Below, piece after piece: positions 3,850 through 59,158 of a DNA stretch of 64,000 nucleotides (its first letter is position 1; the number at the start of each line of letters is the position of its first letter). The notes beneath the pieces were generated by a model. The model had not been told where the DNA came from. It made no database searches and was given only the letters and a program-made list of their open reading frames with translations. Both the position numbers and the translations under genes were made by a program. The stretch comes from Candidatus Uhrbacteria bacterium. GTDB taxonomy: Bacteria; Patescibacteriota; Patescibacteriia; 2-12-FULL-60-25. The stretch spans positions 40,524 to 104,523 of the forward strand of contig JBAXJG010000002.1 in assembly GCA_037137975.1 (NCBI GenBank), given 5' to 3'.

Positions 3850-3853
3850 ATCT

Positions 3854-4648
3854 CTAGATTTTACGAGCTCTTAACCCAAGAAACATTGGGATTTCTGCTC
3901 TGGCTACGTTTTCTGCTTTTGCCTTTGGTCCAGAGTCACTGGTTTTGTTTGAAACCCATTCTTCGAGTGCATCTACGACGAATCCGTATTTTACGAGTTC
4001 GGTTATGTAGACTGAGAGCGGTCGGTGATAGGAATACGTTTTTTCTTCTGGCGCGGATCCTGGATGCATCACGATCGGCATCGCGTAGCTTGAAAGATAT
4101 TTGTCTACGCGACGGTACTGGAGTTTTCGCTCTTCATCCCAACCCCATCCACTTTGGCGTGGTTGACGATAAGCGGGGTGGTTCATTGTTATTACGAAAC
4201 TTCCACCGGTTTTTAAGACTCGCGCCGCATCAGCGAATACAGCTCCGAGTGGATCAATATTTTGGATGGCGAGATTGCAGACGATCCCATCAAACGAAGA
4301 TGGTTGATAGAGAATAGCAAAACCGATCGCATCTCCAACCTGGAAGCGTGTGTTGTTTGGTGCCCCTTTTTTTGCAGCCTGAATCAAGCTGGGTGATGCA
4401 TCGAATCCTTCAATGAGTCGGCTTGTTTCTTTTGCGAGGCGTACCGAAAATGCTCCTTGTCCACAGGCAAGGTCGAGGTAATGTCCGCCTTTTACAGGCT
4501 TCAAGAGACGTTCGGCGCCAGGAAATACGATATCTCGTTGGAAGTCGCCACCTTCTTTTCCCATGTAGTCTTGATACCATCCGGCGACGTTTTCCCAACC
4601 GCGTTTTTGCTGTATAGGTCTTGGCATGTGCGTATGGTACACTTTCAA
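3854..4648 (-). CDS. Class I SAM-dependent methyltransferase
   Basis: Motif I LDLACGQGAFS and post-I/II pattern VGDAIGF...FDGIVCNLAIQNI. The start may be the internal MPRPIQQ at 4627. Confidence 0.75.
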   Translation of the reverse strand: MKVYHTHMPRPIQQKRGWENVAGWYQDYMGKEGGDFQRDIVFPGAERLLKPVKGGHYLDLACGQGAFSVRLAKETSRLIEGFDASPSLIQAAKKGAPNNTRFQVGDAIGFAILYQPSSFDGIVCNLAIQNIDPLGAVFADAARVLKTGGSFVITMNHPAYRQPRQSGWGWDEERKLQYRRVDKYLSSYAMPIVMHPGSAPEEKTYSYHRPLSVYITELVKYGFVVDALEEWVSNKTSDSGPKAKAENVARAEIPMFLGLRARKI

Positions 4649-6415: not shown

Positions 6416-6443
6416 ATACGAAAGGTACCTATCCCCTTATCCC

Positions 6444-7628
6444 ATGCCTATGGTCATCGCGATGATTGGTCAAAAAGGCCTACCGGCTCGTTCCGGTGGT
6501 ATCGAACGCCACGTTGAAACGTTGGCGTCCGGTTTGGCGAATCGTGGTCATCGCGTAATTGTATTTGGTCGTGCGTGGTATGTGGGTGATGGTGTGGGCG
6601 TGCCATCTGGGGTCGAGCAGGTGATTACTTCTGGTATTCGTACGAAGCATCTTGATGCTATTACCCATAGTTTTACTGCGCTTTGGGCGGCTCGTAAGTT
6701 CCATCCAGATGTTGTTCATATTCATGGAGCGGGTATCGCTTTGCTTTCACCGCTTGCTCGTTTGATGCATCCTCGCGCATCCTTGGTGGTTACGTTTCAC
6801 TGTATTGATCGCGTTTTATCGAAGTGGGGGAGTTTTGCTCGATTGAGTTTCCGTATCGGTGAATGGTTGGCGTGTCATGTTCCACATCGTACGATCGCCG
6901 CTTCGCAGACCTTAGCGGTATATTGTCAGGAAACCTATGGCGTTCAGACGAGCTATGTAACGCATCCGATCCCGATGCCAACGCAGCCAACGATTGATGA
7001 AGTTGATCAGAAGCTCAAGCCGCATGGATTGATTCGTGATAAGTACTTTTTGTTTCTTGGACGTCTTATCCCTGATAAAATGGCTCATTTGTTGATCCAA
7101 GCTTATGCAATGGCTCGTTTAGAGCGCCCTGAATTATTTGCAGATAAGCCTTTGGTTTTGGTTGGTGGGGCTGCATGGACAGACAAATATGCGAGCTGGA
7201 TGTGTGCGTTAGCCGCAAAAACGCCTGGCGTGATTGTGTTAGGCGAGCGCAGTGGGGAAGAACTAAAATCTTTGCAAGCCGGAGCTTTAAGTCATGTGTT
7301 TCCCACGGTTAGTGAGGGTTTATCGCTTGCTGTTGTTGAGGCGTGTCAGTTTGCTCGCCTTGTGGTGGCGACGGATATTCAACCAAACGTGGAAGCGACT
7401 GGCGGCCACATGATTTCTGTACGTCCACTTGATGTGCATAGCCTCGTGAACGGTCTTATCCAGGCGGCTGAATTATCACTTGAGGATCGAGCACGAATTG
7501 CTGTTGCTGCTCAGAAACATGTCATCAACTCTCATCATACAGACGATCGTTTGGATGACATTGAGCGGATCTATCGTGAGAGCTGTGGCAAGTCGGCGGA
7601 AATGGTGAGTCAGGTGTCCGTTGCTTAA
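6444..7628 (+). CDS. Glycosyltransferase family 4 (GT-B)
   Basis: N-terminal GQKGLPARSGGIERHV, and a C-terminal FPTVSEGLSLAVVEA (E-x7-E-like) motif. Confidence 0.85.
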   Translation: MPMVIAMIGQKGLPARSGGIERHVETLASGLANRGHRVIVFGRAWYVGDGVGVPSGVEQVITSGIRTKHLDAITHSFTALWAARKFHPDVVHIHGAGIALLSPLARLMHPRASLVVTFHCIDRVLSKWGSFARLSFRIGEWLACHVPHRTIAASQTLAVYCQETYGVQTSYVTHPIPMPTQPTIDEVDQKLKPHGLIRDKYFLFLGRLIPDKMAHLLIQAYAMARLERPELFADKPLVLVGGAAWTDKYASWMCALAAKTPGVIVLGERSGEELKSLQAGALSHVFPTVSEGLSLAVVEACQFARLVVATDIQPNVEATGGHMISVRPLDVHSLVNGLIQAAELSLEDRARIAVAAQKHVINSHHTDDRLDDIERIYRESCGKSAEMVSQVSVA

Positions 7629-7675: not shown

Positions 7676-7779
7676 TGTATAACTTTTCTTCACAATTTGG
7701 TTCCTGTGTGCGTTGTGAGCTTGCGGAAATTTGCGTTTTCGGCTAAGGTTAGCGACACGTTTTTTTTGCGGAGCCGTGG

Positions 7780-8373
7780 GTGTACGACCGCATGAATCAT
7801 CCTGTTGACAGGTTTTACCTATATCGTATTCGAACTCAGCGTGACGCTGAGGCTTTTGGGCGCTTGTATGATCGATATGTCGCCCAAATATTTCGCTTTG
7901 TTTATTTAAAATTACCTTCGCGAGAGGTTGCTGAAGATGTTACCTCTGAAACATTTTTGAAATTTTGGCAGCATATAGTGGCGAATAACGATGTTCGTCA
8001 TATCCGCGCCTTGCTCTATACGACCGCGAAAAATCTTGTGGTGGATTATTATCGAAAACAGGATTCGGGCGTGTCTTTGGACGTTGTAACGTTTTCGGAC
8101 GATGGAACGTCTACTGTTGATGAGCGTCCTTTGTCAGACCGTAATCGCCAGCGAGACCTCATGGAGGCCAAGGCCGATCTCTCAATCATTCTTGAGAAAA
8201 TCAGCCGATTGAAGGAGGACTTTAAAGACGTCCTCACTCTACGCTTGGTAGACGGGCTCGGATTCGGCGATATTGCCCGCATCCTCGACAAGACTCCTGG
8301 GCATGTTCGTGTGATTTACCATCGCGCGATGAAAGCTCTGGAAGCGTTCGACTCTAAAAAACCCTCGTTATGA
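7780..8373 (+). CDS. ECF-type sigma-70 family RNA polymerase sigma factor
   Basis: Region 2 (FGRLYDRYVAQIFRFVYLKL...AEDVTSETFLKFW) and region 4 HTH (LRLVDGLGFGDIARILDKTPGHVRVIYHRAMKAL). Start is GTG 7780 or ATG 7792. Confidence 0.85.
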   Translation: MYDRMNHPVDRFYLYRIRTQRDAEAFGRLYDRYVAQIFRFVYLKLPSREVAEDVTSETFLKFWQHIVANNDVRHIRALLYTTAKNLVVDYYRKQDSGVSLDVVTFSDDGTSTVDERPLSDRNRQRDLMEAKADLSIILEKISRLKEDFKDVLTLRLVDGLGFGDIARILDKTPGHVRVIYHRAMKALEAFDSKKPSL

Positions 8374-9542
8374 GCAAAAGAGAAATTCTCAAAAAGCTTT
8401 CGACGATTCGTCATGCGGAGCGCGGGATTGCGCCACAGACGGAATGGGTTTCGCGTACCCGCGCGTATGTAGTCGATTGCGTACAAAAAGATTTAGCATC
8501 AGGCGTGGTATTCCGTAAGCCTTCGGTTGTGACGGCGCGTCCGGAATTTGTTACACGTATCGCGCAGTGGATGCGTGCTCCAGCTTTGATTACCGCTTCT
8601 ATTATTACCACCGTGTTCGGTGGTTCTTTGCTTGGCGTTTCTGCTTCGGATCGTTCTGTACCGGGCGATTTTCTCTATCCAATCAAACTCGCAAGTGAAC
8701 AGACGCGTCTCGCGCTTACTTCTGACAAGGTTGATCGTTTGCGTTTAAAGACCGAATTCGTTGGTCGTCGTGTGGATGAAATCAAAACTATTTCTGCATC
8801 GCCAGACGCGAGCTCCTCTGATCGTGTGCGCCAGGCGGCTCAAGTATTGAAACGTGATCTCGATACGGTGAAAAATCAATTACAGGAAGTGAAACAGGAT
8901 ACACCGGGCGCAAAAGCAGTCGAAGTCGCTAAAATGGTTGATGAAAAGACCGATTCTGTTGCTTCTGAGTTAAAGTTCGTGAAAGAAAATGCTCCAGAAG
9001 ATGTTAAACCAAGTTTAGCTGAGGCTGAAGTAGCGGCTATCCATACGGGCGTGAGCGCTGTAGAGGTCATGATCGACGCAAATGGTTCACAAGATGGGCA
9101 AACAGTGATTTCTGATGCGGATGTCGCGCATGCAATTCAAAATAAAGTAGATGGAATTCAAGCCACATTAAATGGTGCAGCAGGATTGCTTCTTTTGCCA
9201 GGATCGGACGCGACGGGAACGGTTTCAGCCTTGTCGCATTTACAATCCGCGAGCTCCTCTGCGCTTCAGATCACGAATGCGAGTGCGACATTGCAAGAAG
9301 TTCGCAACTTGCTAGGGGAGAATAAATTAAATGAAGTAACAGGAAAATTGTTTGAGGCTGCTAAGACAGCGTTTCAGGCTGAGACAGATGCGAGCCTTGC
9401 TTCCGTTTCGAGCACTGCAGCCGCTCCCGTGACAACTACATCGTCCTCTGAACCGATTATTCCCGTTTCATCAACTTCGAGTGTGAGCGCGCCAGCATCT
9501 TCATCGACGCAAACATCATCCACGCGATTAACTCCACCATAA
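8370..9542 (+). CDS. DUF5667-like single-pass membrane protein with Ser/Thr-rich tail; candidate anti-sigma partner
   Basis: 4-nt overlap with the sigma gene and one TM (ALITASIITTVFGGSLLGV). PGDFLYPIKLASEQTRLAL...LKTEFVGRRVDEI resembles DUF5667. The tail reads TTTSSSEPIIPVSSTSSVSAPASSSTQTSST. Confidence 0.55.
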   Translation: MSKREILKKLSTIRHAERGIAPQTEWVSRTRAYVVDCVQKDLASGVVFRKPSVVTARPEFVTRIAQWMRAPALITASIITTVFGGSLLGVSASDRSVPGDFLYPIKLASEQTRLALTSDKVDRLRLKTEFVGRRVDEIKTISASPDASSSDRVRQAAQVLKRDLDTVKNQLQEVKQDTPGAKAVEVAKMVDEKTDSVASELKFVKENAPEDVKPSLAEAEVAAIHTGVSAVEVMIDANGSQDGQTVISDADVAHAIQNKVDGIQATLNGAAGLLLLPGSDATGTVSALSHLQSASSSALQITNASATLQEVRNLLGENKLNEVTGKLFEAAKTAFQAETDASLASVSSTAAAPVTTTSSSEPIIPVSSTSSVSAPASSSTQTSSTRLTPP

Positions 9543-9554
9543 CAAAATATTTAT

Positions 9555-9616
9555 TTGTTCTCCCGTCACACAGGGCGACCCTGCCACGCAGAGGCGTCCT
9601 GACAGCGGGAGAACAA
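9555..9616 (+). promoter_or_regulatory. Three-way-junction stem-loop element between the DUF5667 gene and the surface-protein gene
   Basis: TTGTTCTCCCG (9555-9565) pairs perfectly with CGGGAGAACAA (9606-9616). Inside are hairpins CAGGG-CGA-CCCTG and ACGC-AGAG-GCGT. No U-tract follows. Confidence 0.4.
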
Positions 9617-9673
9617 TATGTGCTTTCGCTCGTGCCTGTTACCCACCTTCGACACCCGGCAAATAAAAGTCGA

Positions 9674-9693
9674 CCTTCGATAATTATCGAAGG
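9674..9693. promoter_or_regulatory. Perfect 20-nt palindrome in the surface-protein leader (operator or RNA hairpin)
   Basis: CCTTCGATAATTATCGAAGG equals its own reverse complement. It lies 44 nt upstream of the ATG at 9737. Confidence 0.5.
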
Positions 9694-9736
9694 GCTGGGA
9701 GTCTCTATTCTTAGTGTCACAAACCTACATTCCCCT

Positions 9737-12700
9737 ATGGGAAACATTCTCAAAAAAGTTATTTCCAGCTTCGTTGCTTTGACGACGATCGCTTGGTCCG
9801 TCGGTGTTGGTACGTTTGCGCTTCCTAGCGTAGCGTCCGCTGCCGCCATGACTGGCGACCTTATCAAGGCCTCCGGTCCAGCCGTGTATTACTTCGCTGC
9901 TGACGGAAAGCGCTACGTTTTCCCTAACGAGAAGACGTATTTCTCTTGGTTCATGGACTTCTCGTCCGTGCGCACGATCTCGGACTCCGAGCTCGCTTCC
10001 TACATGATTGGTGGGAACGTCACGATCCGCCCAGGCACAAACTTGGTCAAGATCACGACAGATCCTAAGGTGTACGCCGTCTCCCTCGGAGGCGTATTGC
10101 ACTGGGTCGAATCCGAAGCAGTCGCCACGTCACTTTGGGGCTCCAACTGGGCTTCCAAGGTCGTCGACGTTGCTGACGGTTTCTTCGTGAACTACACGAT
10201 TGGTTCCTCGCTCTCATCCCCAGTTCACCCAGACGGTTCATTGATCACCTACGCTGGTGATGCAACCCGTTACGTGGTCTCTGGTGGCATGAAGCGCCGC
10301 ATCGCATCAGACTCCGTATTCGCAGCCAATGGATTCAACTCCATGTATGTGAACACGACAACGGTTTCGTACTCCAATGGTACAGACCTCACGGGCCGCG
10401 AATGCGCCCTTGCTGATGTTGTTGCTTTCTGTGGTGGCGCCCCAGTTGTTGGTGGTAGCCTCACAGCCACGCTCGCGTCTGACACCCCAGCCGCAGCAAC
10501 AGTGCCAAAGAACGCATCGAGCGTAACGCTCGCGAAGTACAACTTCACCGCCGGCTCCGCCGCTGCTGTGATCTCTGGCCTCCGCGTCCGCCGCATCGGC
10601 GTTGGTGCAACCTCAGACTTTGCGAACGTATACTTGTATGACGGTAACGGCACCCGTTTGACCACGGGCCGCACCATCAACTCGTCCACGAACGTCGTTG
10701 AATTCAACGGACTCACGATCAACGTGGCCGCTGGTGCAACAATCTCCCTCGTCATCGTTGGTGACTTCTCGTCCCCACTCACGACAGGTGGTCAGCACTC
10801 GTTCGAACTCTCTGACGCCGCTTCGGTGATCGTCACGGGTTCCGGCACGGTTTCCGGTTCGTTCCCAATCCGTGGCAACGTGTTCACGGTTGGTACGATC
10901 TCCGCTGGTCGTCTCGACATTTTGAAGGGAACAACGCCAACCAATCCGAACATCGGAGCGATGGATGTTGAAATCTCCAACTTCAAGATGACGGCCAACA
11001 CAAACGACATCGAAGTTCGCCGCATCACAATCCTTCAGGCCGGTTCGATCACGAACACGGACTTGTCGGACCTCAAGCTCTACCAGGGCTCGACCGTGGT
11101 TGCGACTGCTGCCGCTTTGTCTAACGACAAGATGGTTCTTAACTTCAGCCCGGCCTACGTGATCACGAATGGCACGACAAAGACGTTCTCGCTCCACGCG
11201 AAGATCGCCGGTCGCGCTGGTCGCACGATCAAGACCTACGTTGAATACACGACTGACGTGTACGCAGTCGATCGTTTGTACAACTCTGGCGCTTCGATTG
11301 ATATCGCCACGAACGGAACCTTTGATGGTTCTTCCACTGGTACGAAGTATATCGAAGTCACCACGCAAGGTGGTCAACTCACTGTTTCCTTCAATGGTCC
11401 AGTGACTGGCAACGTTGCCAAGGGTAGCCAGGACGTTGTCCTCTACAAGTTCTCCCTCCTTTCCCCAGACAACACGCTTGAAATCCGCAACGTTGATTTC
11501 AACTTGGTTTCTGTAAATAGTGGAAAGATCGTCGGTTCAGCTGGAACGAAGTATTTCCGCGACATCAAGATCAAGAATCTTGACACCGGAGAGACCTTCA
11601 TGGGTCCTACGGACCTTTCCTCTGCTTGTGTGACTGGCTCCACGACGTGTGCCGTCACGCTTACAGACTCCCGTAACATCGCAGCCGGCGCTGCACTCAA
11701 CCTCGCCATCACGGCTGATTTGAGCAATACGGAAGATGCTGCAAATGAATTCTTCGGTCTCAATACGAAGCAATATCGTATCGACCTCGGTGATGGAACG
11801 AACATCTTCGGATCTTCGGATGTCCGCATCGTGAGCACGGGCGAATTCTTGGACACCTCCAAGATCGTTCCAAACTCCATGATCAACGGCAATGCCCAGA
11901 CCGTGAAGTCTTCGAACCTCACTGTTGCTCTCGCTTCTTCCCCATCCGCAGGGACGGCCGTGAAGAAGGAAGCGATGATCCCAACCGCAGGTTTCGTGTT
12001 CACCGCTGGTGACCAAAGCGACGTAGCGATCAAGTCCGTGAAGATCACGGGTTCCGCTGCATTGCTCGTTGCCTACGATGCTTCCACGACCCGCTCGGTG
12101 GTCACTTCTTGTGCTTTGTTCGACGGTGCAACTCAGGTCGGCCTTTCACAGGCTCCTGACACCACGACAGGTGCAATGAACATCACCAACATGAACGTCA
12201 CCGTTCCAAAGGGCACTTCCAAGACGCTTGTCGCGAAGTGTACTGCGGACTCCGTTGTAGAAGGCGCTGCTGACTACATCGCTCTTGGTATCGCCCTCGC
12301 TGCGGACGTTTCTGCAGAAGACGCTGATGCCAACACAGTCACCCCATCCATTAACGCTGCTGTTTCTGCCAATGCTGGCGCCGCGCCATCACTTGTTCAG
12401 ACCATCCGCGCTGGTGGTACGCTCACTGTTTCCCCAGACAACTTGCGCCAGTCAACGATCCTCGTTGGCGACGGTGGTGCTGTTTGGCAGAACTTCGCGC
12501 AGTTCAAGGCAACCGCTCAGTACGAAGCTGTCGTGATCGACAAGATCGCTGTGACTTCGACGGGTGATGCTGCAAACTTCACGGAGATCGCTGTCGCTCA
12601 AGACGGCACAGTGAAGGGTTCCGCTCTCTTGTCCGCTGGTAACTCCAAGTCTAAGGACGTTACCCTCGGTGCTCCAATCACAGTTGCGAAGGATGGCTCT

Positions 12701-13606
12701 GCCACTTTCCAGTTGTGGGGTAAGCTCGCCACGGTCGTCTCGTCATCCACGGTCAGCGGCGCCACAGCTGGTGCAGCTCGCTCGGGTAACATGATGTCCC
12801 TTGGTCTCGACAAGAACATCACGACAGGCGACTGGGACACATCGTACGCTGGTATCTTGAACATCCATGCAAATGGACAGGCTTCCGGAGACCGCTTGTA
12901 CGCTGCCACCACGACGGTCACCAACGTAGGCAACTCGTTTGTCCTTCGTAAGACCAAGCCAGTTGTGACTCGTCAGGCCCTTTCGACCACCACCCTCACG
13001 GCTGGTCTCGACATGGACCTCTACAAGTTCCAGGTTTCAGCTGACAGCGCCGGCTCCGTGGCCCTTAAGAAGATTGTCTTCGCATGGTCCAAGGGTGACT
13101 CGAACGCCAGCTTCAGCCTCGCAAACTTCCGTCTCCGCAAGGGTTCCTCTGACATCGCCGCTGCTGATATCTCTATCACTTCTGCGACCAGCGTGAACTA
13201 CTACACGGGCGGTCCTGCCGCAGGTGAATTGTCCGGTAAGGTCGTCGTCTCGTTCACGAACGAAGAAACGATCGTTGGTTCTGGCAATGTCTACACCTTG
13301 CACGCTTCAGTCAGTGGCACGGTTGACTCGGGCGACTCCGTCTCCCTCAACTTCTTCCGTGATAACTCGATTGTTGCCCCAGTGACTGGTTATCTTACCG
13401 TCAACCCAATCGGTGGTATGGTTGGTGCTAACATCGACACATCCGTCGGTGGAACTGGCGTCGCCGCTGCTACTGGTACGTTTGTCTGGGCAGATAACTC
13501 GGAAATCCCACACTCCTATGCTTCGGGCACCGCTGGTGGCTCGATGGATTGGACACAGGATCTCTACCTCGAGGACCTCACTCAACAGTCCGTGTTGAGC
13601 CGTTAA
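9737..13606 (+). CDS. Giant secreted surface (S-layer-like) protein with tandem beta-sandwich-like modules
   Basis: Signal peptide MGNILKKVISSFVALTTIAWSVGVGTFALPSVASAAA. Two N-terminal repeat units (DLIKASGPAVYYFAADGKRYVFPNEKTY / SLITYAGDATRYVVSGGMKRRIAS) are followed by about 8-10 modules of roughly 110 aa, rich in T/S/A/V/G/N. Codons are strongly C-ending. The in-frame GTG at 9620 is judged less likely as the start. Confidence 0.75.
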   Translation: MGNILKKVISSFVALTTIAWSVGVGTFALPSVASAAAMTGDLIKASGPAVYYFAADGKRYVFPNEKTYFSWFMDFSSVRTISDSELASYMIGGNVTIRPGTNLVKITTDPKVYAVSLGGVLHWVESEAVATSLWGSNWASKVVDVADGFFVNYTIGSSLSSPVHPDGSLITYAGDATRYVVSGGMKRRIASDSVFAANGFNSMYVNTTTVSYSNGTDLTGRECALADVVAFCGGAPVVGGSLTATLASDTPAAATVPKNASSVTLAKYNFTAGSAAAVISGLRVRRIGVGATSDFANVYLYDGNGTRLTTGRTINSSTNVVEFNGLTINVAAGATISLVIVGDFSSPLTTGGQHSFELSDAASVIVTGSGTVSGSFPIRGNVFTVGTISAGRLDILKGTTPTNPNIGAMDVEISNFKMTANTNDIEVRRITILQAGSITNTDLSDLKLYQGSTVVATAAALSNDKMVLNFSPAYVITNGTTKTFSLHAKIAGRAGRTIKTYVEYTTDVYAVDRLYNSGASIDIATNGTFDGSSTGTKYIEVTTQGGQLTVSFNGPVTGNVAKGSQDVVLYKFSLLSPDNTLEIRNVDFNLVSVNSGKIVGSAGTKYFRDIKIKNLDTGETFMGPTDLSSACVTGSTTCAVTLTDSRNIAAGAALNLAITADLSNTEDAANEFFGLNTKQYRIDLGDGTNIFGSSDVRIVSTGEFLDTSKIVPNSMINGNAQTVKSSNLTVALASSPSAGTAVKKEAMIPTAGFVFTAGDQSDVAIKSVKITGSAALLVAYDASTTRSVVTSCALFDGATQVGLSQAPDTTTGAMNITNMNVTVPKGTSKTLVAKCTADSVVEGAADYIALGIALAADVSAEDADANTVTPSINAAVSANAGAAPSLVQTIRAGGTLTVSPDNLRQSTILVGDGGAVWQNFAQFKATAQYEAVVIDKIAVTSTGDAANFTEIAVAQDGTVKGSALLSAGNSKSKDVTLGAPITVAKDGSATFQLWGKLATVVSSSTVSGATAGAARSGNMMSLGLDKNITTGDWDTSYAGILNIHANGQASGDRLYAATTTVTNVGNSFVLRKTKPVVTRQALSTTTLTAGLDMDLYKFQVSADSAGSVALKKIVFAWSKGDSNASFSLANFRLRKGSSDIAAADISITSATSVNYYTGGPAAGELSGKVVVSFTNEETIVGSGNVYTLHASVSGTVDSGDSVSLNFFRDNSIVAPVTGYLTVNPIGGMVGANIDTSVGGTGVAAATGTFVWADNSEIPHSYASGTAGGSMDWTQDLYLEDLTQQSVLSR

Positions 13607-13621
13607 TCCTCAGTAGGAACC

Positions 13622-13653
13622 AAAACCCCGCCATTTGGCGGGGTTTTGTTTTT
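13622..13653 (+). terminator. Strong rho-independent terminator of the surface-protein gene
   Basis: AAAACCCCGCC-ATTT-GGCGGGGTTTTGTTTTT. Confidence 0.88.
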
Positions 13654-13678
13654 GGTGTTACGCTTGCGAACAAATTCT

Positions 13679-16018
13679 ATGACTCGTACTACTGCCATTA
13701 AGTTGTTCAAGGGGATTTCCCTTGTAGGTATCTACGGTGGGCTTCTTGTTCCGCTCATGTTTATTCCGGTCGTGATCTTTCCGTTCGTATTTTCTAAGAT
13801 CATTTTCTTTCAGATGTTAATCGGTTTGACGTTCCCAGCGTATCTCGCTTTGGCGTGGATGGATCCGCAGTATCGTCCAAACATTAAACACCAATTGTAT
13901 GTGGCTATAGCGGCGTATTTCGTTGCCGTGGCAGTTTCAGTAATATTTGCCGTGGATCCGTCTCGTGCATGGTGGGGGAATCAGGAGCGCATGAATGGGC
14001 TGTTCTCCCTCCTCCACTTCTTTGCTTGGATGACCATGATGGTTGGTGTCCTAAAGACATGGGAGGACTGGAAACGCTTGTTGATTTATGAAGTTGCGTT
14101 GTCGGCGATAATGGCGATCGTAGCCATGCTTCAGCGCTTGAACCCAGATTTACTGTTGTTTAAGGCGAGTGGTCGTGTTGGTGGTTTGGTGGATAACCCA
14201 ATCTACATGGCCGCCTATCAGATTTTTAATTTTTTCTTTCTCGCGTTGTTGTTCTGGAAAGTTCCGTCAAAGAGCGCTCGCATATGGTTTGTGATGTTCT
14301 TTTTGTGTGATGTGGTGGCGTTTATTCTAGCTCAATCGCGCGGCGCATTTATTGGGTTGGCTGCTGGTATCTTTGCGTTTGCTTTGTATATTGCGTTATT
14401 TAGCAAGAGTCGAAAATTGAAAGCAGGCGTATTTGGTGGCGTTCTCGTACTTGTTCTTGGATATGGTGGGTTGTATCTCGCAAAAGATACGGCGTTTGTT
14501 ATTAATTCGCCGCTTGGACGTCTTACAAACCTTACGACCACGGTTGATACGCGTCTTATCGCCTGGAAGATCGCGTGGCAGGGATTCGTAGAGCGACCAT
14601 TTGCAGGATGGGGATTCGATAACTTCCATATTTTGTTTAATCAAAAGTTTAATCCTGAGTCGTTACGATACGGTACCTACGAAACGTGGTTCGATCGTTC
14701 GCACAATACGGTTCTCGATGTGTTGTCGATGACGGGTATTTTGGGATTCTTTACGTTCTTCGCGATTTACGTTTGTATTTTCCTCGCAACGTGGAAGGCG
14801 TATAAGCAAAAGTGGATTGACCTTCCAATTGCAGCCATCCTTTTCTCTTTACCGGTAGCATACTTCGTTCAAAACCTTCTCGTGTTCGACCACCCAGCCG
14901 GCTTTACCATGAGCTTCATGCTTTATGCGTTGATTATCGCGGCAACAAAGGGCGAATTCGTTGGTGAGAAAGATAAGGCGGTTGTTGAAGCGGTAAAAGT
15001 CGAGGGACATCGCGATGCGCCATGGATTCTCTTCACAATAATTTTTGTGATGTTTGGTCTTTTAGTCTATCGCACCTCGTATTTGCCATTCACCGCTTCA
15101 CGTACAGCTATTCAGGCGAACGCTACGTTTAATGTGAATCCAGTATTGGGATATCAGCTGTTTAAGCAGGCTTCTGAAATTCCGACATTGTATAAAGATG
15201 AGCAGTCATTCTTGATGGCGCAAAATGTCATTGGGATGCTAGGAGCTGGAGTCTTCCAAAAGGTCCCGAATTACATGGATGTGTATGGACTCGCGAAGTC
15301 GCTTTCGGAAGAAGAGGTGACACGTCATCCACAAAACACGCATCCGCATTATATTTTTGCGCGCCTTGCTCAAGAGATGATGAGCGTTTCTTCTTCAGAG
15401 GCGCAGATTTCATTTGAAGAATATCAAAAAGCCATCGCAACAAGTCCAAAACGCCAGCAGCTTTGGTATGGACTTGCTCGTTTGTATCTTCAGACGGGGC
15501 AGTTGGATAAGGCAGTTGAAGTGTTTAAGAATGTGCGAGATTTTGATCCAGAAGACGGAATTGGGCCTTGGAATTATGGCTTGATTCTTATGTACGATAA
15601 GGCGGGTCAAACGAATGATTCAGCGATTCGTTTGGAGGGAGCGCAAGAAATTAAGAAGGCTATGGAAGTAAAGTGGGTGTATGGTTTATCAAGTGGTCGA
15701 GAGTTGTTGCCGCTCTTTGATGCGTACATTGTCTTGCAAGACACGCCAGGTCTGACAAAGTGGACGGAGAAGCTTGTGGACTTTCCACTCGCGGATGCCT
15801 CGACATACGCTCAGATCGCCATGAAAATGAATATCGTTCAGCTAAATGACTTGCGCGATAAAATCTTAACTATTGGTGAAAACCGGGCACCTGGAACGAA
15901 GGATGCGTTTGAAAAAATGTTGAATCCACTAGCTCCGACTCCGGCTGCTGCGGTGCCAAGTAATGAGCCGAATATGTTTAAGGCCGCAGCAACATCAACA
16001 AGCGGCGCAAGACGCTAA
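13679..16018 (+). CDS. Wzy_C (O-antigen ligase/polymerase/O-oligosaccharyltransferase-like) polytopic membrane protein with C-terminal TPR domain
   Basis: More than 10 TM helices with the Wzy_C-type loop AQSRGAFIGLAAG. The C-terminal soluble part has TPR-like repeats (LWYGLARLYLQTGQLDKAVEVFKNVRDFDPED). ATG 13679 lies downstream of the terminator. Confidence 0.7.
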   Translation: MTRTTAIKLFKGISLVGIYGGLLVPLMFIPVVIFPFVFSKIIFFQMLIGLTFPAYLALAWMDPQYRPNIKHQLYVAIAAYFVAVAVSVIFAVDPSRAWWGNQERMNGLFSLLHFFAWMTMMVGVLKTWEDWKRLLIYEVALSAIMAIVAMLQRLNPDLLLFKASGRVGGLVDNPIYMAAYQIFNFFFLALLFWKVPSKSARIWFVMFFLCDVVAFILAQSRGAFIGLAAGIFAFALYIALFSKSRKLKAGVFGGVLVLVLGYGGLYLAKDTAFVINSPLGRLTNLTTTVDTRLIAWKIAWQGFVERPFAGWGFDNFHILFNQKFNPESLRYGTYETWFDRSHNTVLDVLSMTGILGFFTFFAIYVCIFLATWKAYKQKWIDLPIAAILFSLPVAYFVQNLLVFDHPAGFTMSFMLYALIIAATKGEFVGEKDKAVVEAVKVEGHRDAPWILFTIIFVMFGLLVYRTSYLPFTASRTAIQANATFNVNPVLGYQLFKQASEIPTLYKDEQSFLMAQNVIGMLGAGVFQKVPNYMDVYGLAKSLSEEEVTRHPQNTHPHYIFARLAQEMMSVSSSEAQISFEEYQKAIATSPKRQQLWYGLARLYLQTGQLDKAVEVFKNVRDFDPEDGIGPWNYGLILMYDKAGQTNDSAIRLEGAQEIKKAMEVKWVYGLSSGRELLPLFDAYIVLQDTPGLTKWTEKLVDFPLADASTYAQIAMKMNIVQLNDLRDKILTIGENRAPGTKDAFEKMLNPLAPTPAAAVPSNEPNMFKAAATSTSGARR

Positions 16019-17115
16019 TCAAACAGCGCGGAGATGTTCCCTTCGTAGGTTTTGGAAAGCGGAAAGCGTGCCTCCACTTGGAGGCGCGCTTTTTGTGAAA
16101 GCTCGGATCGTAAGTTGTCGTCTCTCATAACTCGGAGCATGGCTTCTGCGAGAGCGACTGGATTCATGGCAGGGACAATCACGCCTCCATCCGCGAGCAT
16201 CCATTTAGCAGCGCCAACATCTGTAGCGATGCAGGGGAGTCGAGCAGCCATCGCCTCGAGCAGAGCAAAAGCCATACCTTCTTTTGAGCTTGGTAAAACA
16301 AAAGCATCAAAATCTTGCAAGATTGTTGAAGCGTCATCGCGGGCCCCTGGAAGTTGTACGGCTTGTTCTAATCCAAGTGCTTTACGTTTCGCTTCGATTT
16401 CTCCTCGTTGAGCTCCATCTCCTAAAATAAGAAACGTTGTATTAGGTTCAATGCTGTGGACGATTTTGCAGGCTTCAAGATAGCGAGGGAGGTCTTTTGG
16501 AGGATAGAAATTTGCGACTGTTCCGAACGTGAAACGTGAAGCTTGAAGCTTGAAACGTGGCTTTAGCGCTGCATCAAAACGATCGAGATCAATGCCGTTT
16601 GGGACGGACACAATTCGTTTGAATGGTTTAATGCCAACCTCGCGCGCAATAACTTCATCACCTGGGTGCACGCAAATAATTACGTCTTTATATTTTGCGG
16701 TTGTTTTTTCGATTGAGCGATAGAGCCATTTCTTTGTCGCTGGTAATTCTTCACGAAAAGTCCATCCGCCAATGCGATAGGTGACTTGAGAGATTCTGGC
16801 GAGATGCGCCGCGACTGAACCAAGTGCACCCATTTTGGCACTATTTAGATGTATTGCATCGGGACGGAGTTTTTTGAGGACGTCACGAAGCTCTAGGATC
16901 GCTGGGATATCACGTTTAGCACTGATCTCGCGTCCCATGAGTTTAAGCTTGATATAGGGTATTTCTAGGGCTTTGCAGCGATCTTGAAGCCAAGTCCCAT
17001 CACCCGAAATGATGGTTGCTTCATGCCCGAGTTGTTTTAAATGTAATGCAAAACCGACCAGGAACTGCTGGACGCCCCCTTGTTCGCCTAAAGTTACGGC
17101 GAAAGCAATTTTCAT
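16015..17115 (-). CDS. Glycosyltransferase family 4
   Basis: MKIAFAVTLGEQGGVQQFL N-terminus and C-terminal LPSSKEGMAFALLEAMAARLPCIATDVG. The ORF extension to 17238 would overlap asnB. Confidence 0.85.
   Translation of the reverse strand: MKIAFAVTLGEQGGVQQFLVGFALHLKQLGHEATIISGDGTWLQDRCKALEIPYIKLKLMGREISAKRDIPAILELRDVLKKLRPDAIHLNSAKMGALGSVAAHLARISQVTYRIGGWTFREELPATKKWLYRSIEKTTAKYKDVIICVHPGDEVIAREVGIKPFKRIVSVPNGIDLDRFDAALKPRFKLQASRFTFGTVANFYPPKDLPRYLEACKIVHSIEPNTTFLILGDGAQRGEIEAKRKALGLEQAVQLPGARDDASTILQDFDAFVLPSSKEGMAFALLEAMAARLPCIATDVGAAKWMLADGGVIVPAMNPVALAEAMLRVMRDDNLRSELSQKARLQVEARFPLSKTYEGNISALFD
16527..16561. repeat. Imperfect heptanucleotide tandem array inside the GT4 gene
   Basis: Units read directly: ACGTGAA ACGTGAA GCTTGAA GCTTGAA ACGTGGC. 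Confidence 0.9.
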
Positions 17116-17170
17116 TTTTGCGCTTTCCATAGCGATAAGATAGGCTTCAAATGACGAAAAAGTCAATCCT

Positions 17171-18946
17171 ATGTGCGGTATTGCTGGTCTTATTCGAGCA
17201 GATGGGCGGCCTGTAAATCGGGACCGCTTAGTCGGCATGTCTGAGGCAATAGTGCATCGTGGACCTGACGCAGAAGGGATGTGGATAGAGGGGGGGTGTG
17301 GTTTAGCTCATCGTCGCCTCGCGATCGTGGATTTGTCGCCAACTGGAGCCCAGCCAATGCGGTCTGGGGATGGTAGGTATGTCGTTACATTTAACGGTGA
17401 AATATATAATTATAAAGAGCTAAGACATGAGCTTGAATCGGCTGGAATCGTGTTGCGTTCAACGAGTGATACGGAAATTTTGGTAGAATTGTATGCTCGT
17501 TACGGCGAAGCGATGCTTGGTCGATTGCGAGGGATGTTCGCGTTTGCTATTTGGGACACGCAATCGCGTGTACTGTTTTTCGCGCGTGATCGTATTGGAA
17601 AGAAGCCCTTTTATTATTCTTTGCTGAATGATGAATTTGCATTCGCTTCTGAGCTCCCGGCTTTTTTCGCGTTATCTAAGGTGACGCCTGATTGGGATGC
17701 GATTGGGTTGTTTCTGGGTTTACAATATATTCCAAGTCCGTATACGGGATTTGAAGGGATTGTCTCGCTCTCACCTGGGAATTGTGGAACATGGAGCGAA
17801 GGGCGAATCACCATACGTCCGTACGTGGAATCGCCCTTGCCACCATTTTCTGGCACCTTCAATGAGGCCGTTACGGAAACGCGACGCTTATTGGATGAGG
17901 CCGTGCGTTATCGGATGATCGCCGACGTGCCGGTCGGATGTTTTTTGTCTGGAGGGATTGATTCGTCCGCGATCGCCGCACTTATGGCACGTCATTCGTT
18001 TTCGCCAATTAAGACGTTTACGATGGGATTTCCTGACTGGAAAGCAGATGAGCGAGACGAGGCGGCAACATTCGCAAAGCAAATTGGTGCCGAACATTAT
18101 TCGTTTGAAGCGAAAGCCGAAGATGCGGTTGCATTGGTGGATCGACTTGTGGATTTGTATGCCGCTCCGTATGCGGATTCGTCATGTTTGCCGACCTATC
18201 TTCTCGCGCAGGCAACATCGAAACATGTGAAGGCTGTGATGAATGGCGATGGGGGAGATGAGGCGTTCATGGGATATAAGCGGTATGCGTATTTTGCACA
18301 GGCAAAGCGATTTCGAGCCCTTGGGCATATCCCCGGTTTAAGCGCATTGAGTTTTGGAAATCCAAAAGTGAAGCGCATGCTGCGGACGATGGCTGCGCTG
18401 TCAGAAGGTGAGGCTGCAGGTTATGCGGAGATGTTCATGGGATCCTATTTTTCCGAGTTGGACCTACCTTCGTCGACGGCAAAAAAATTCATTATCGAGC
18501 ATATGCCCGATTTTGATCGTCGTTCGTATCTCCCAGACGATTTGTGCGTGAAGATGGATCGGGCGACCATGGCGCATGGTGTGGAGGCGCGTTCGCCTTT
18601 GCTTGATCAGGAATTAGTTCGTTTTGCAGCGAGCTTGCCTTTGGAATGGCATAGAAAAGGCGGAAAACAAAAAGCGGTGTTGCAGGCAGCGGTAGCTGAA
18701 TTTGTGCCAGAAAGCGTGTTAAATCGCCCAAAACGAGGGTTTCAGATACCGCTAGGGGCGTGGTTTCGTGGACCGCTCAAGCCATTGTTTGAGCAACGTT
18801 GTTTGGTGAGTGGTTCAAAACTTGAGCGTGTATGTCCTCAGGCGATTGTGCAAAAATATTTTGATGAGCATCAGCGCGGTCGAGATCATGGAAATCGTTT
18901 ATGGATGCTACTCACGCTCGCGACGTGGCTAGAGAAGCATGCATAG
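17171..18946 (+). CDS. asnB: Asparagine synthase (glutamine-hydrolysing) family amidotransferase
   Basis: N-terminal nucleophile MCGIAG, a GATase-2 domain, and the PP-loop SGGIDSSAIAA. Confidence 0.9.
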   Translation: MCGIAGLIRADGRPVNRDRLVGMSEAIVHRGPDAEGMWIEGGCGLAHRRLAIVDLSPTGAQPMRSGDGRYVVTFNGEIYNYKELRHELESAGIVLRSTSDTEILVELYARYGEAMLGRLRGMFAFAIWDTQSRVLFFARDRIGKKPFYYSLLNDEFAFASELPAFFALSKVTPDWDAIGLFLGLQYIPSPYTGFEGIVSLSPGNCGTWSEGRITIRPYVESPLPPFSGTFNEAVTETRRLLDEAVRYRMIADVPVGCFLSGGIDSSAIAALMARHSFSPIKTFTMGFPDWKADERDEAATFAKQIGAEHYSFEAKAEDAVALVDRLVDLYAAPYADSSCLPTYLLAQATSKHVKAVMNGDGGDEAFMGYKRYAYFAQAKRFRALGHIPGLSALSFGNPKVKRMLRTMAALSEGEAAGYAEMFMGSYFSELDLPSSTAKKFIIEHMPDFDRRSYLPDDLCVKMDRATMAHGVEARSPLLDQELVRFAASLPLEWHRKGGKQKAVLQAAVAEFVPESVLNRPKRGFQIPLGAWFRGPLKPLFEQRCLVSGSKLERVCPQAIVQKYFDEHQRGRDHGNRLWMLLTLATWLEKHA

Positions 18947-46368: not shown

Positions 46369-46410
46369 GAGTGTGGCGGGATGATCTTCGCTCAGGTAAG
46401 CTTGTCCCCG

Positions 46411-56234: not shown

Positions 56235-56235
56235 T

Positions 56236-57501: not shown

Positions 57502-57506
57502 TCTCT

Positions 57507-58022: not shown

Positions 58023-58040
58023 TGCTATACTGTCGAGGAC

Positions 58041-58475: not shown

Positions 58476-58478
58476 CAT

Positions 58479-59144: not shown

Positions 59145-59158
59145 TAGGATCGCGCGGC

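Follow-up and report, generated by a model that had tools for sequence, protein, structure and literature searches.

Protein O-oligosaccharyltransferases (O-OTases) and other Wzy_C ligases are not separable by sequence; WaaL depends on an Arg/Arg/His set that PglL also conserves, and 21 of 31 predicted pglL genes adjoin the gene of their target (PMC3643930). A C-terminal TPR motif has been reported for PglL and for the S-layer O-OTase WsfB, while WsaB has a TPR protein as its neighbor, and the S-layer glycosylation (slg) cluster of Paenibacillus alvei includes WsfA, an asparagine-synthase homologue (PMC2943079). Imaged CPR cells have an S-layer and no outer membrane, and CPR bacteria live as episymbionts attached to their hosts (bioRxiv 10.1101/2020.05.14.094862).

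The DNA examined here comes from Candidatus Uhrbacteria (Patescibacteria/CPR); the Uhrbacteria lineage consists of ultra-small bacteria. All positions refer to the window, i.e. the whole stretch of 64,000 nt that was analyzed. The locus described below represents a variant form of the S-layer glycosylation locus known from other bacteria. An asparagine-synthase-like gene close to it parallels WsfA.

Results

Four co-oriented open reading frames, for an ECF sigma factor, a DUF5667 protein, a big surface protein and a Wzy_C-TPR protein, were confirmed with small coordinate corrections. An earlier, sequence-only reading had described them as a coherent block and a candidate S-layer module with its own O-OTase, and overall it was partly borne out. 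Among related species with sufficient flanking sequence, 51 of 53 keep the gene order, more than expected by chance. The DUF5667 gene and the big gene are separated by a structured RNA, likewise conserved, so that the block has five parts and not the four originally listed. Conservation of the enzyme-target adjacency held within the clade, the big gene lying less than 1 kb upstream of the Wzy_C gene in 68 of 75 loci, but not beyond it. More distant Patescibacteria keep the sigma, DUF5667 and surface-protein trio without an adjacent Wzy_C gene, and the adjacency is thus clade-specific. In one close relative (L022) the Wzy_C gene is present and the other block genes are absent within 10 kb.

The ECF-type sigma factor (7792..8373, +; 193 AA) has its public gene call at ATG 7792, in a reading frame (7780-8373) that is open from GTG 7780. 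Pfam recognizes Sigma70_r2 (6e-13) and r4_2 (4e-9) and no other domains in it; the protein lies above the NCBIfam sigma70-ECF cut-off, with a BldN-like group as the top subfamily (7e-30). A sigma-70-type promoter candidate (CTTGCGG, N17, GCTAAGGT) precedes the gene at 7720..7749 (+). Of 52 related loci, 49 carry the motif TTGnnn-N16-18-TAnnnT ahead of sigma, compared with 11 of 280 control windows. Around the DUF5667 stop, upstream of the big gene, it occurred in none of 56 loci; as the big gene has no detectable promoter, its earlier description as monocistronic is unsupported.

The DUF5667 protein (8370..9542, +; 390 AA; Pfam DUF5667 2e-11) is, as proposed, translationally coupled to sigma and single-pass. 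The two genes overlap by 4 nt, its ATG lying across the sigma stop, and most loci show either this overlap or a distance within ~35 nt. The one TM segment spans residues ~70-88; a cytoplasmic patch (residues 22-36) and the juxtamembrane ectodomain are conserved. Ser and Thr make up 21% of the whole protein and 24-66% of its tail across 53 of 53 species, so that the Ser/Thr-rich tail noticed earlier (residues ~341-390, nt 9390-9539; low in complexity) is a conserved compositional feature. The protein is a candidate anti-sigma factor or envelope sensor; Pfam and NCBIfam gave no domain-level support for the anti-sigma role.

Between the DUF5667 and surface-protein genes (9543..9736, +) we found an undescribed structured leader RNA, a new finding beside the four genes, with zero matches in Rfam. 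Its sequence blocks are kept in ~55 species. P1 is formed by pairing of 9557-9565 with 9606-9614 and P2 is a hairpin at 9571-9601; the 3′ strand of P3 lies at 9627-9633, and P4 (9655-9699) bears the single-stranded motif AAAAGUCGA at 9665-9673, with a conserved CUAUUCUUA following at 9705-9713. In a plain MAFFT alignment P2 and P3 were 94% paired, compared with 42-46% when the partner columns were slid. Compensatory changes were seen in 12 pairs, and none of 500 shuffles reached the observed value. The P4 fold forms in 52 of the 57 leaders, each position showing 4-6 types of base pair. When 1.46 Mb was searched on both strands, ~35 of 40 matches of the structured motif fell in the leader.

The big gene (9737..13606, +) encodes a secreted surface protein of 1289 AA (1290 in the first reading), an S-layer candidate that starts at ATG 9737, not 9734, and is identical to database protein P0121. 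A signal peptide (residues 1 to ~35, ...VASA|AA) is followed by a three-unit anchor-like module (residues ~40-230, nt 9854-10426) and then by approximately nine beta-sandwich domains of Ig-like type; a conserved stretch of ~55 AA lies at the C-terminus. The label 'repeat protein' holds at the level of fold but not of sequence: the AlphaFold2 model is an all-beta string of sandwich domains (pLDDT 87, with a low pTM of 0.46), and BLASTP of the protein against itself revealed no internal repeats. No sequence match was obtained in Pfam, NCBIfam or PDB. Foldseek returned only generic Ig-domain strings, without specific likeness to solved S-layer proteins, and PrgB, AspA, SpaP and FnBPA, all adhesins, rank among the best structural matches. 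Orthologues across the clade are full length (1290 +/- ~40 AA) and 44-81% identical. The N-terminal module is common to 4906 protein clusters and is located at the N- or C-terminus of exported proteins of various kinds, subtilases and Ig-array proteins among them; in other lineages, proteins with this module have no adjacent Wzy_C gene. At one locus (L049) the gene directly upstream of Wzy_C encodes another protein, which carries this module at its C-terminus.

As had been stated, the surface protein is rich in Ser and Thr (22%, compared with 10-11% in the sigma and Wzy_C proteins). Its gene has an ENC of 37.1 vs. 44.8-54.1 for 22 other window genes, and is the lowest among its neighbors in 52 of 54 species; so extreme a bias in codon use suggests a structural protein made in bulk. 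A strong intrinsic terminator (13621..13655, +), with a 12-bp stem containing 8 G-C pairs and then a T-run, separates the gene from that of the Wzy_C-TPR protein, and an equivalent hairpin with T-run follows the surface gene in 58 of 67 related loci. Judged from the sequence, codon bias and downstream terminator are in keeping with a coat protein of very high abundance and a candidate for an S-layer.

The last gene of the block (13679..16018, +) encodes a predicted WaaL-fold glycan ligase of 779 AA (not 780) with an extracytoplasmic TPR domain. TTG 13646 is inside the terminator, and the true start is therefore ATG 13679; the product is identical to database protein P0001. The presence of a Wzy_C domain with TPR repeats was confirmed by Pfam (Wzy_C 1e-18, region nt ~14297-14761; TPR_19 3e-8), with no PglL_A motif found. 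The AlphaFold2 model (pLDDT 84, pTM 0.81) has as its top Foldseek match WaaL 7tpg (TM-score 0.65 on target), the enzyme's sole solved relative. Invariant R221, R292 and H342 align with R215/216, R288 and H338 of E. coli WaaL, i.e. with the Arg/Arg/His residues that WaaL and PglL have in common. The topology agrees with the positive-inside rule, and in the model a 13th helix (TM13, residues 449-484) is predicted to put the TPR-like domain (residues 488-748, nt 15140-15922) outside the cell. Full-length versions of the enzyme, 42-80% identical, occur in the genomes of at least 111 species.

The block adjoins, as described before, a glycan locus with an initiator and a flippase, which contains many GT4 and GT2 genes, epimerases and DegT. 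A GT4 gene (6444..7628, +; Pfam Glyco_transf_4, Glycos_transf_1) is the conserved upstream neighbor; many related loci have a homologue of it immediately ahead of sigma. Downstream, a convergent GT4 gene (16015..17238, -; Pfam GT4) has a convergent homologue at most 1.5 kb away in 63 of 69 loci, and the asparagine-synthase-like amidotransferase gene (17171..18946, +; Pfam GATase_7, Asn_synthase) is conserved in most loci. Farther away lie genes for a Wzx-type flippase (40144..41451, -; Pfam Polysacc_synt, Polysacc_synt_3) and a WbaP/WcaJ-like polyprenyl glycosylphosphotransferase (44980..46368, -; Pfam Bac_transf; NCBIfam TIGR03025, 324.7 bits vs. a cut-off of 295.6 bits). Pfam recognized no other Wzy in the glycan locus, where two unannotated polytopic proteins are encoded at 38512-40128 (11 TM, adjoining Wzx) and 53187-55232 (~15 TM). 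The window also holds Pfam-assigned genes for a PMT_2 GT-C enzyme (25556-27181, ~10 kb from the surface gene), an adjacent GT2 (24239-24940) and a GtrA-like protein of the GtrA_DPMS_TM family (47559-47987). Distal glycan genes differ among species carrying the Wzy_C-TPR enzyme. The earlier remark that lipid A and core genes are absent stands for the called genes of the window, and as CPR cells have no outer membrane a WaaL (lipid A-core) role is implausible.

Discussion

The surface protein is probably the major cell-surface coat (S-layer) protein, and the most likely role of the adjacent enzyme is to link preassembled sugar chains to protein. The best explanation of the whole, to which we give about an even chance, is a major coat protein glycosylated en bloc by the Wzy_C-TPR enzyme with the use of the neighboring glycan locus. 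Synteny, codon bias, the terminator, export and the all-beta architecture of the surface protein, its anchor-like module, the S-layers seen in CPR cells, the WaaL fold, TPR placement, the Arg/Arg/His residues, conservation of the enzyme and the presence of initiator and Wzx in the window argue for it, as do the TPR and adjacency precedents, the parallel to WsfA and the L049 locus. Arguments against it are the missing PglL_A motif, the trio without nearby Wzy_C in distant Patescibacteria, the L022 locus, the PMT_2 route and the lack of specific similarity to solved S-layer proteins. The initiator phosphotransferase and GT4/GT2 enzymes would build a glycan on undecaprenyl pyrophosphate, and Wzx would turn it outward as the donor. 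The Wzy_C-TPR enzyme would then move the glycan en bloc onto Ser/Thr (or Tyr) of an exported protein held by the TPR domain, the prime target being the adjacent surface protein and the second candidate the Ser/Thr-rich DUF5667 tail. With only part of transcription passing the terminator, structural protein would be plentiful and the enzyme scarce. The level of coat-protein synthesis may be tuned by the leader RNA together with sigma and DUF5667, likely a sigma/anti-sigma pair.

It is possible, though we consider it rather unlikely, that the big protein serves as a fibrillar adhesin or spacer made in large amounts, e.g. for host attachment, and does not form an S-layer lattice, the rest of the module being unchanged. 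The beads-on-a-string model with its low pTM, the adhesins among the top structural matches and the host-attaching life of CPR bacteria speak for this. Host-binding adhesins usually diversify, and the length and sequence of this protein are unusually conserved; the codon bias suggestive of bulk abundance also argues against an adhesin, and the Bacilli S-layer proteins dealt with in PMC13635256 are, too, beads-on-a-string arrays of Ig-like domains. Sequence and fold cannot tell a protein O-OTase from an anchoring-glycopolymer ligase. In the latter role, for which the generic ligase character of its fold and catalytic residues speaks, the enzyme would transfer the lipid-linked glycan to an acceptor other than protein (membrane glycolipid or wall polymer), much as TacL, the Wzy_C-family lipoteichoic-acid ligase of Streptococcus pneumoniae, uses a membrane glycolipid. 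We regard this as doubtful, and give the same weight to its companion proposal that the glycopolymer product is the ligand of the surface protein's N-terminal module, much as SLH domains bind secondary cell wall polymer and RsaA binds O-antigen. The module behaves as an anchoring domain common to many unrelated exported proteins, and the L049 arrangement fits a link of Wzy_C to this module, not to glycosylation, equally well. High conservation of the enzyme would suit a conserved lipid or wall acceptor, and the account of Caulobacter in PMC6978808 has its S-layer anchored to O-antigen. Against this, TPR domains outside the cytoplasm typically serve protein-protein recognition and are reported for WsfB and PglL (PMC2943079), anchor-module proteins of other lineages lack a Wzy_C neighbor, and no specific glycolipid-anchor synthase was found, the GT4 matches to such families being weak.

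Protein O-glycosylation could alternatively proceed through the PMT_2 enzyme from polyprenyl-phosphate monosaccharides, with the Wzy_C-TPR enzyme serving another glycoconjugate; we think this improbable, and equally so that the donors are made by the GT2 and flipped with the help of the GtrA-like protein. All three genes are inside the window, and in Actinobacteria PMT-family enzymes O-mannosylate Ser/Thr-rich secreted proteins, but the PMT_2 gene is distant from the surface gene, family members also act on lipids and polysaccharides, and the PMT_2 and Wzy_C-TPR routes are not mutually exclusive. Very improbable, in our estimate, is a Wzy-type polymerase of capsule or exopolysaccharide repeat units whose adjacency to the surface gene has no functional meaning. 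The Wzy_C domain also occurs in some polymerases, PDB 7tpg was deposited as a 'polymerase/ligase', and the glycan locus has no other recognizable Wzy. Yet the three ligase-essential residues are invariant, either polytopic protein could fill the polymerase role, and synteny with the surface gene is extensive. Wzy polymerases normally diverge along with repeat-unit structure, and the present enzyme is conserved although the distal glycan genes vary between species.

The block as a whole is best explained as the probable cell-surface coat module of Uhrbacteria, a single-membrane lineage of the CPR/Patescibacteria.

Conservation of the gene block

The four co-oriented genes described by the sequence-only reading are all present in the window, and its family assignments were borne out by Pfam: Sigma70_r2 and r4_2 domains were found in the ECF-type sigma factor, and both the DUF5667 protein and the membrane protein with Wzy_C and TPR regions were recognised. 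The genes are real, but the starts of three of them needed correction. The large surface-protein gene (9737-13606) has its ATG at 9737 and a product of 1289 aa; the Wzy_C-TPR gene spans 13679-16018 from ATG 13679 (779 aa), the TTG at 13646 falling within the terminator hairpin; and the sigma gene was called from ATG 7792. The sigma stop codon and the DUF5667 ATG overlap by 4 nt. Ser and Thr together account for 22% of the large protein, 21% of the DUF5667 protein and about 10% of the sigma factor and of the Wzy_C-TPR enzyme.

The host lineage is Patescibacteria group, Parcubacteria group, Ca. Uhriibacteriota. The synteny check proposed by the earlier reading was run across its relatives. A scan for enzyme relatives with one genome per species gave 111 genomes, and the best 80 of these loci were taken with 10 kb flanks. 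The order and orientation of sigma, DUF5667, large protein and Wzy_C-TPR genes were kept in 51 of the 53 loci having more than 6.5 kb upstream, and in 68/75 loci the distance from the end of the large gene to the enzyme gene downstream was under 1 kb. Downstream, a convergent GT4 gene was found in 63 of 69 loci and an AsnB-like gene in most. Locus L022 was the sole one with ample flanks that lacked the partner genes. Conservation extends over the full length of the large protein (44-81% identity) and of the enzyme (42-80%). The block is thus confirmed and far from a chance arrangement.

Distant lineages retain the sigma, DUF5667 and surface-protein genes, with no adjacent Wzy_C gene in the downstream DNA covered; an unannotated 800-aa protein encoded downstream in locus L087 was considered as a Wzy_C-TPR relative and rejected as unrelated on testing. 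Many public MAG records carrying the module (L001, L003, L008, L011-L016 and others) are titled 'uncultured Gammaproteobacteria bacterium', and these are evidently mislabelled TPA assemblies.

The large surface protein is a candidate coat protein

In translation, the large protein starts with a Sec signal peptide (KK, a hydrophobic core and VASA/AA), and no lipobox, sortase signal or C-terminal TM segment was found in it. Neither Pfam nor NCBIfam gave a family, and no SLH, CWB2 or other wall-anchoring domain was detected by Pfam at E <= 5 in the N-terminal 200 aa. The AlphaFold2 model of residues 36-1235 (pLDDT 87; pTM low, 0.46) comprises three N-terminal alpha/beta units of about 60 aa followed by about nine beta-sandwich domains. 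Foldseek against the PDB returned no specific relative, only generic Ig-domain arrays such as PrgB, integrins, alpha-2-macroglobulin and streptococcal adhesins. The description of this product as a repeat protein is therefore true at the level of the fold but not of the sequence, as self-BLASTP revealed no internal sequence repeats. Outside the modelled region, the C-terminal ~55 aa (about 13442-13603) are nearly invariant across 52 orthologues, with the pattern F.W.D.SE.PHS...GS.DWT.D.Y.EDLTQ..LSR.

The abundance of the protein was judged by two proxies, codon bias (ENC) and a strong terminator. The large gene has an ENC of 37.1 and a GC3 of 0.64, vs. 44.8-54.1 and 0.36-0.53 for 22 other genes of the window, and this extreme bias explains the GC bump at 10-14 kb. 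Its ENC is the lowest among the neighbouring genes in 52 of 54 species (median 36.8 vs. 48.1 for the enzyme gene). A canonical intrinsic terminator (13621-13655) lies 3′ of the large gene in the window, and likewise in 58/67 loci. Imaging of CPR cells, of a lineage not known, showed a periodic surface layer and no outer membrane (bioRxiv 10.1101/2020.05.14.094862). Taken together, the codon bias, the terminator and the imaged surface layer make the large protein, as judged from its sequence, the best candidate for the lineage's major coat (S-layer) protein; a protein of these properties could possibly also be an abundant fibrillar adhesin.

The N-terminal units form a widespread module

The three N-terminal units, each of about 60 aa, form a module encoded at 9854-10426 (residues about 40-230). 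In a library of 1.8 billion proteins it is present in 4906 clusters (50% identity), 1514 of which score below 1e-30. It is placed at the N- or C-terminus of proteins 186-1562 aa long, fused among others to subtilases, Big_1/Big_5/Big_12 arrays and DUF3048. No Pfam match was obtained for the module even at relaxed E-values, and its profile gave only spurious 16-residue matches to designed 'Bagel' proteins among PDB sequences. A weak resemblance to the EccB repeat region, seen at 4e-10 for a 13-repeat relative and at 0.016 for a single family member, was taken as insufficient for an assignment. The module has not been described previously, and its distribution suggests that it is likely a shared envelope-anchoring domain.

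Loci encoding proteins with the module at the C-terminus are without both the sigma/DUF5667/surface-protein set and a nearby Wzy_C gene. A separate case is locus L049, in which the gene directly upstream of Wzy_C-TPR (14-1387) encodes a different, Ser/Thr/Gly-rich protein; its anchor module is at the C-terminus, not the N-terminus, and is the sole feature it has in common with the large protein. Subtilase genes recur beside genes for module-bearing proteins, as seen for a Peptidase_S8 gene in the window (46381-47562), in two of the compared loci (L087, 12420-13712; L088, 4183-5724) and for P0330, and some subtilases are fused to the module. They may be a processing protease for surface proteins.

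The sigma factor, the DUF5667 protein and transcription of the block

The sigma factor consists of regions 2 and 4 only and matches the sigma70-ECF model TIGR02937 with 71.7 bits (cut-off 42.9). Its partner, compared in 53 species, has a short conserved cytoplasmic patch (residues 22-36), one TM segment and a conserved helical ectodomain; the C-terminal 50 aa contain 24-66% Ser+Thr, a composition that is kept while the sequence is not. No anti-sigma domain of Pfam or NCBIfam was found in the DUF5667 protein, and no literature on DUF5667 was found. An anti-sigma role is plausible for this protein, which is single-pass and translationally coupled to sigma.

A sigma-70-type promoter motif precedes the sigma gene in 49/52 loci (7720-7749 in the window). 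The same motif was present in none of 56 loci from 150 nt before to 30 nt after the DUF5667 stop codon, and in 4 of 56 leaders, vs. 11 of 280 control windows. Nor did the search for a promoter of the large gene reveal a conserved k-mer over the final 100 nt of DUF5667 or where the leader starts. The claim that the large gene is monocistronic is thus unsupported, as no sigma-70-type motif was found for it. Because no such promoter motif was found and RNA structure starts ~14 nt past the DUF5667 stop, two routes of expression are left for the large gene: co-transcription with sigma and DUF5667 followed by processing or stabilisation of the RNA, or a promoter of its own that escaped recognition and is perhaps ECF-dependent.

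A structured leader RNA precedes the surface-protein gene

The interval between the DUF5667 and large genes (9543-9736 in the window) varies from 190 to 590 nt across loci and holds conserved sequence blocks, namely CAGGG, CCUGAC, GGGCGGGGGA, CCGCUCGU, AUCCUCGCCA, AAAGGUCGA and UUAUUCA. The conserved structure starts about 14 nt past the DUF5667 stop codon. RNAalifold, applied to an unfitted MAFFT alignment, predicted a long hairpin (P2) and a second helix (P3), for which 94% of cells were paired vs. 42-46% in slid controls. Compensatory changes occur in twelve pairs of P2/P3, and the observed covariation was reached by 0 of 500 shuffles. As proposed by eye, the 5′ strand at 9557-9565 can pair with GGGAGAAC (9606-9614), which would give either a pseudoknot with P3 or a structure alternative to P3.

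In a further, 3′ element, P4 (9655-9699), the invariant AAAGGUCGA stays unpaired, with an outer helix on one side and an inner hairpin on the other. This fold was obtained for 52/57 leaders; the helix positions show 4-6 pair types each, the pairs being taken from predicted folds and hence 100% paired by construction. As MAFFT failed to register the variable hairpins, a motif-plus-folding scan replaced a covariance model of P4. Over 1.46 Mb, both strands, it gave 40 structured matches, about 35 of them within the leader. The P4 motif also lies upstream of the surface-protein gene in three of four distant sigma/DUF5667 loci beyond Uhrbacteria (L087, about 3850-3910; L089, about 3842; L091, about 6440-6500).

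Rfam covariance models found nothing credible for the leader at E <= 10 in 9400-9800, and at gathering scores they recovered two tRNAs only in the whole window. Three other explanations of the conserved blocks were rejected. An ECF promoter (GAAC-N16-CGT in the window) is incompatible with a spacer that ranges from about 12 to 31 nt across species and takes up hairpin insertions; a hammerhead ribozyme, suggested by the CUGANGA-like CCUGACGAG, has variable core positions; and AAAGGTCGA is not a -10 element, since covariation is seen in the helices that flank it, the strand on its upstream side included. The leader may be a cis-regulator that binds a protein or a ligand, an element for RNase processing and stability, or a ribosome standby site.

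The Wzy_C-TPR protein has the ligase fold

The enzyme scores 67.7 bits against Pfam Wzy_C (PF04932; cut-off 31.7, E = 1.2e-18). Its AlphaFold2 model (pLDDT 84, pTM 0.81) consists of a 12-TM core, a charged cytoplasmic linker (423-448), TM13 (449-484) and an all-helical TPR-like domain (488-748). Loop charges fit an N-in topology by the positive-inside rule; in this topology the outer face carries the large TM9-TM10 loop (268-344) as well as the TPR domain. The best Foldseek match was WaaL (7tpg_B, E = 3.5e-5, TM-score 0.65 on the target), and 7TPG was the sole membrane-protein match in the PDB, by sequence or fold; the TPR domain of OGT was also among the Foldseek matches. Sequence similarity to WaaL is marginal (E = 2e-4 across about 90 residues).

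R215, R288 and H338 are essential residues of E. coli WaaL, and PglL conserves them as R224, R298 and H349 (PMC3643930). In a weak hhalign alignment of the family profile with K-12 WaaL (E = 0.009), R221 of the enzyme falls on R216 (R215 in the literature), R292 on R288 and H342 on H338, and these three residues are invariant in 32 enzyme sequences. Given the WaaL fold and the invariant R221/R292/H342, we conclude that the Wzy_C-TPR protein is a bona fide member of the ligase superfamily and, on sequence and model, is probably catalytically active. In the window the terminator lies 30 nt from the enzyme ATG, a spacing that makes read-through the simplest putative source of a low enzyme level.

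The adjoining glycan locus

The remainder of the window is a large glycan locus with numerous GT4 and GT2 genes, epimerases, dehydratases, a DegT aminotransferase and methyltransferases, and it also encodes an AsnB-like amidotransferase and a PMT_2 GT-C enzyme. A Wzx flippase gene lies at 40144-41451 (- strand), and a polyprenyl glycosylphosphotransferase, a WbaP-like initiator that exceeds the TIGR03025 cut-off, at 44980-46368 (- strand). No LPS genes (lipid A, core) were found among the called genes of the 64-kb window. Two polytopic membrane proteins without a Pfam or NCBIfam family, one of about 11 TM that adjoins Wzx (38512-40128, + strand) and one of about 15 TM (53187-55232, - strand), are candidates for a Wzy-like polymerase or for further GT-C enzymes.

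Two GT2 genes (24239-24940 and 50092-50781), the PMT_2 GT-C gene (25556-27181) and a GtrA-like gene (47559-47987) encode components of a polyprenyl-phosphate-sugar/GT-C glycosylation route. Such a route could act apart from the Wzy_C enzyme, either in the O-glycosylation of proteins or in the decoration of polymers.

The GT4 and AsnB-like amidotransferase genes (16015-18946) and the initiator (44980-46368) have their best NCBIfam matches among families of PEP-CTERM/XrtA exopolysaccharide loci. Except for TIGR03025 of the initiator, these XrtA-system matches are under the cut-off; the AsnB-like protein also passes the generic asparagine-synthase model of NCBIfam, and no exosortase was seen within the window. 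The far end of the window (55653-62961) is outside the glycan locus and carries cell-wall and division genes (CDP-alcohol phosphatidyltransferase, Mur ligase, DivIC, FtsW/RodA) together with a Y-family polymerase; tRNA-Gly(CCC) and tRNA-Thr(CGU) are at 59231-59417.

The acceptor of the Wzy_C-TPR enzyme

A role as WaaL in the strict sense is implausible: the CPR cell has a single membrane and the 64-kb window contains no LPS genes, so that lipid A-core is unavailable as an acceptor. Simple, BLAST-level sequence analysis cannot separate WaaL from PglL and other O-oligosaccharyltransferases (O-OTases) (PMC3643930), and in our searches the enzyme matched no curated subfamily profile for an O-OTase, a ligase or a polymerase. 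The PglL_A motif (PF15864) had no match in it at E <= 0.01. [quoted passage not shown] Genes for O-OTases often adjoin the target gene in the same orientation (21/31 cases; PMC3643930). Here, the enzyme gene adjoins, and is co-oriented with, the surface-protein gene in 68/75 loci, which is circumstantial and not a defining property of the PglL type.

Several observations favour a protein acceptor. The TPR domain is predicted outside the membrane, and WsfB and PglL carry a C-terminal TPR motif; the enzyme gene holds a stable position behind the surface-protein gene, as O-OTase genes often lie beside their targets; the locus shares an AsnB homologue and a WbaP-like initiator with the slg cluster of Paenibacillus alvei; and the enzyme is far more conserved than is usual for polymerases. 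We regard the joint model, in which the enzyme would be an O-oligosaccharyltransferase and the large protein a coat protein, as evenly balanced between right and wrong. The same fold and genomic context would be seen if the enzyme were a ligase producing an anchoring glycopolymer, and the neighbour protein in L049, which shares the anchor module only, also speaks for such a ligase; we consider this possible, if rather unlikely. Certainty about a protein acceptor is further lowered by the distant lineages that keep sigma, DUF5667 and the surface protein without an adjacent Wzy_C gene, and by the proteins with a C-terminal module, which lack both neighbour sets. The PMT_2, GT2 and GtrA-like set offers another route to protein O-glycosylation in the same window. 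To a Wzy-type O-antigen or capsule polymerase we give little weight. The enzyme had no polymerase-specific match in NCBIfam or Pfam, its high conservation across species argues against that role, and other polytopic candidates exist within the locus. The overall interpretation offered by the sequence-only reading is reasonable and holds in part: a WaaL role is set aside, the enzyme looks active, its TPR domain is predicted to face outward and the synteny is conserved.

Comparison with known systems

The closest parallels are the S-layer glycosylation (slg) loci of P. alvei (SpaA, WsfB, WsfA, WsfP) and Geobacillus stearothermophilus NRS 2004/3a (SgsE, WsaB, WsaA, WsaP). In the former the Wzy_C transferase WsfB carries a TPR motif, and in the latter the TPR protein WsaA accompanies the Wzy_C transferase WsaB (PMC2943079). 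The likeness to WsfB/WsaB is one of architecture, Wzy_C plus C-terminal TPR, set against the published description (PMC2943079). The slg loci also share a WbaP-like initiating phosphotransferase and a glycan locus tied to the S-layer structural gene, and the asparagine-synthase homologue WsfA of P. alvei is matched by the AsnB-like gene (PMC2943079). On the other hand, the host phylum (CPR) is unrelated, and for the surface protein neither an SLH domain nor any similarity to SpaA, SgsE or Pfam families was detected. G. stearothermophilus has a Wzm/Wzt ABC transporter (PMC2943079) where a Wzx flippase is encoded here. The enzyme described here is extended by a 13th TM helix and by about 260 residues that form a helical ectodomain, and the sigma/DUF5667 pair and the structured leader RNA belong to the block.

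PglL and PilO/TfpO are likewise of the Wzy_C family, and PglL R224/R298/H349 correspond to R221/R292/H342 (PMC3643930); a C-terminal TPR motif has been reported for PglL (PMC2943079). They differ in that PF15864 was not detected in our enzyme, its neighbour is not a pilin and its host has a single membrane. WaaL of E. coli and Cupriavidus (7TPG) shares the 12-TM core, the large outward TM9-TM10 loop and equivalents of the essential residues, but lacks TM13 and the TPR ectodomain, and its lipid A-core acceptor is ruled out here. The eukaryotic TMTC1-4 O-mannosyltransferases and OGT resemble the enzyme by analogy, as glycosyltransferases fused to a TPR array on the substrate-facing side of the membrane; their catalytic folds and donors are different and the catalytic part is non-homologous. 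Long structured 5′ leaders are found upstream of highly expressed S-layer genes, such as slpA of Lactobacillus and of Thermus. Like these, the leader of the block is structured and precedes a coat-protein gene with the marks of very high expression. Unlike them, it has an internal loop, AAAGGUCGA, that is conserved in sequence and framed by two covarying helices, as well as a clade-specific 5′ domain; it starts ~14 nt past the stop codon of the preceding gene and belongs to no Rfam family.

Implications for the CPR envelope

We regard the system as a further version of the S-layer glycosylation locus known from Firmicutes, with an undescribed anchor module and an undescribed RNA motif as additions. 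CPR/Patescibacteria may be a large share of bacterial diversity, and their envelope is the interface of an episymbiotic lifestyle. No report naming a CPR S-layer protein was found in the literature searched. Were all of its elements to hold jointly, the block would provide the first molecular description of a CPR/Patescibacteria S-layer system, a reading that we put forward as tentative. It would comprise a new coat-protein family, a new phylum-wide wall-anchoring module and a dedicated O-oligosaccharyltransferase of the WaaL fold, whose extracellular TPR domain would grasp the coat protein. The DUF5667 protein as an envelope sensor, the ECF sigma factor and the new cis-regulatory RNA would then form a feedback circuit that adjusts how much coat protein is made to the condition of the envelope. 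The RNA in this circuit would be the AAAGGUCGA internal-loop motif, which appears conserved well beyond Uhrbacteria.

A ligase-TPR fusion acting on a folded coat protein could interest the bioconjugate field. For the organisms themselves, if this reading is true, it would give one large lineage a concrete and very abundant candidate coat protein and a candidate enzyme that glycosylates it, together with an anchoring module marking thousands of CPR surface proteins and an unreported structured RNA linked to surface-layer genes.
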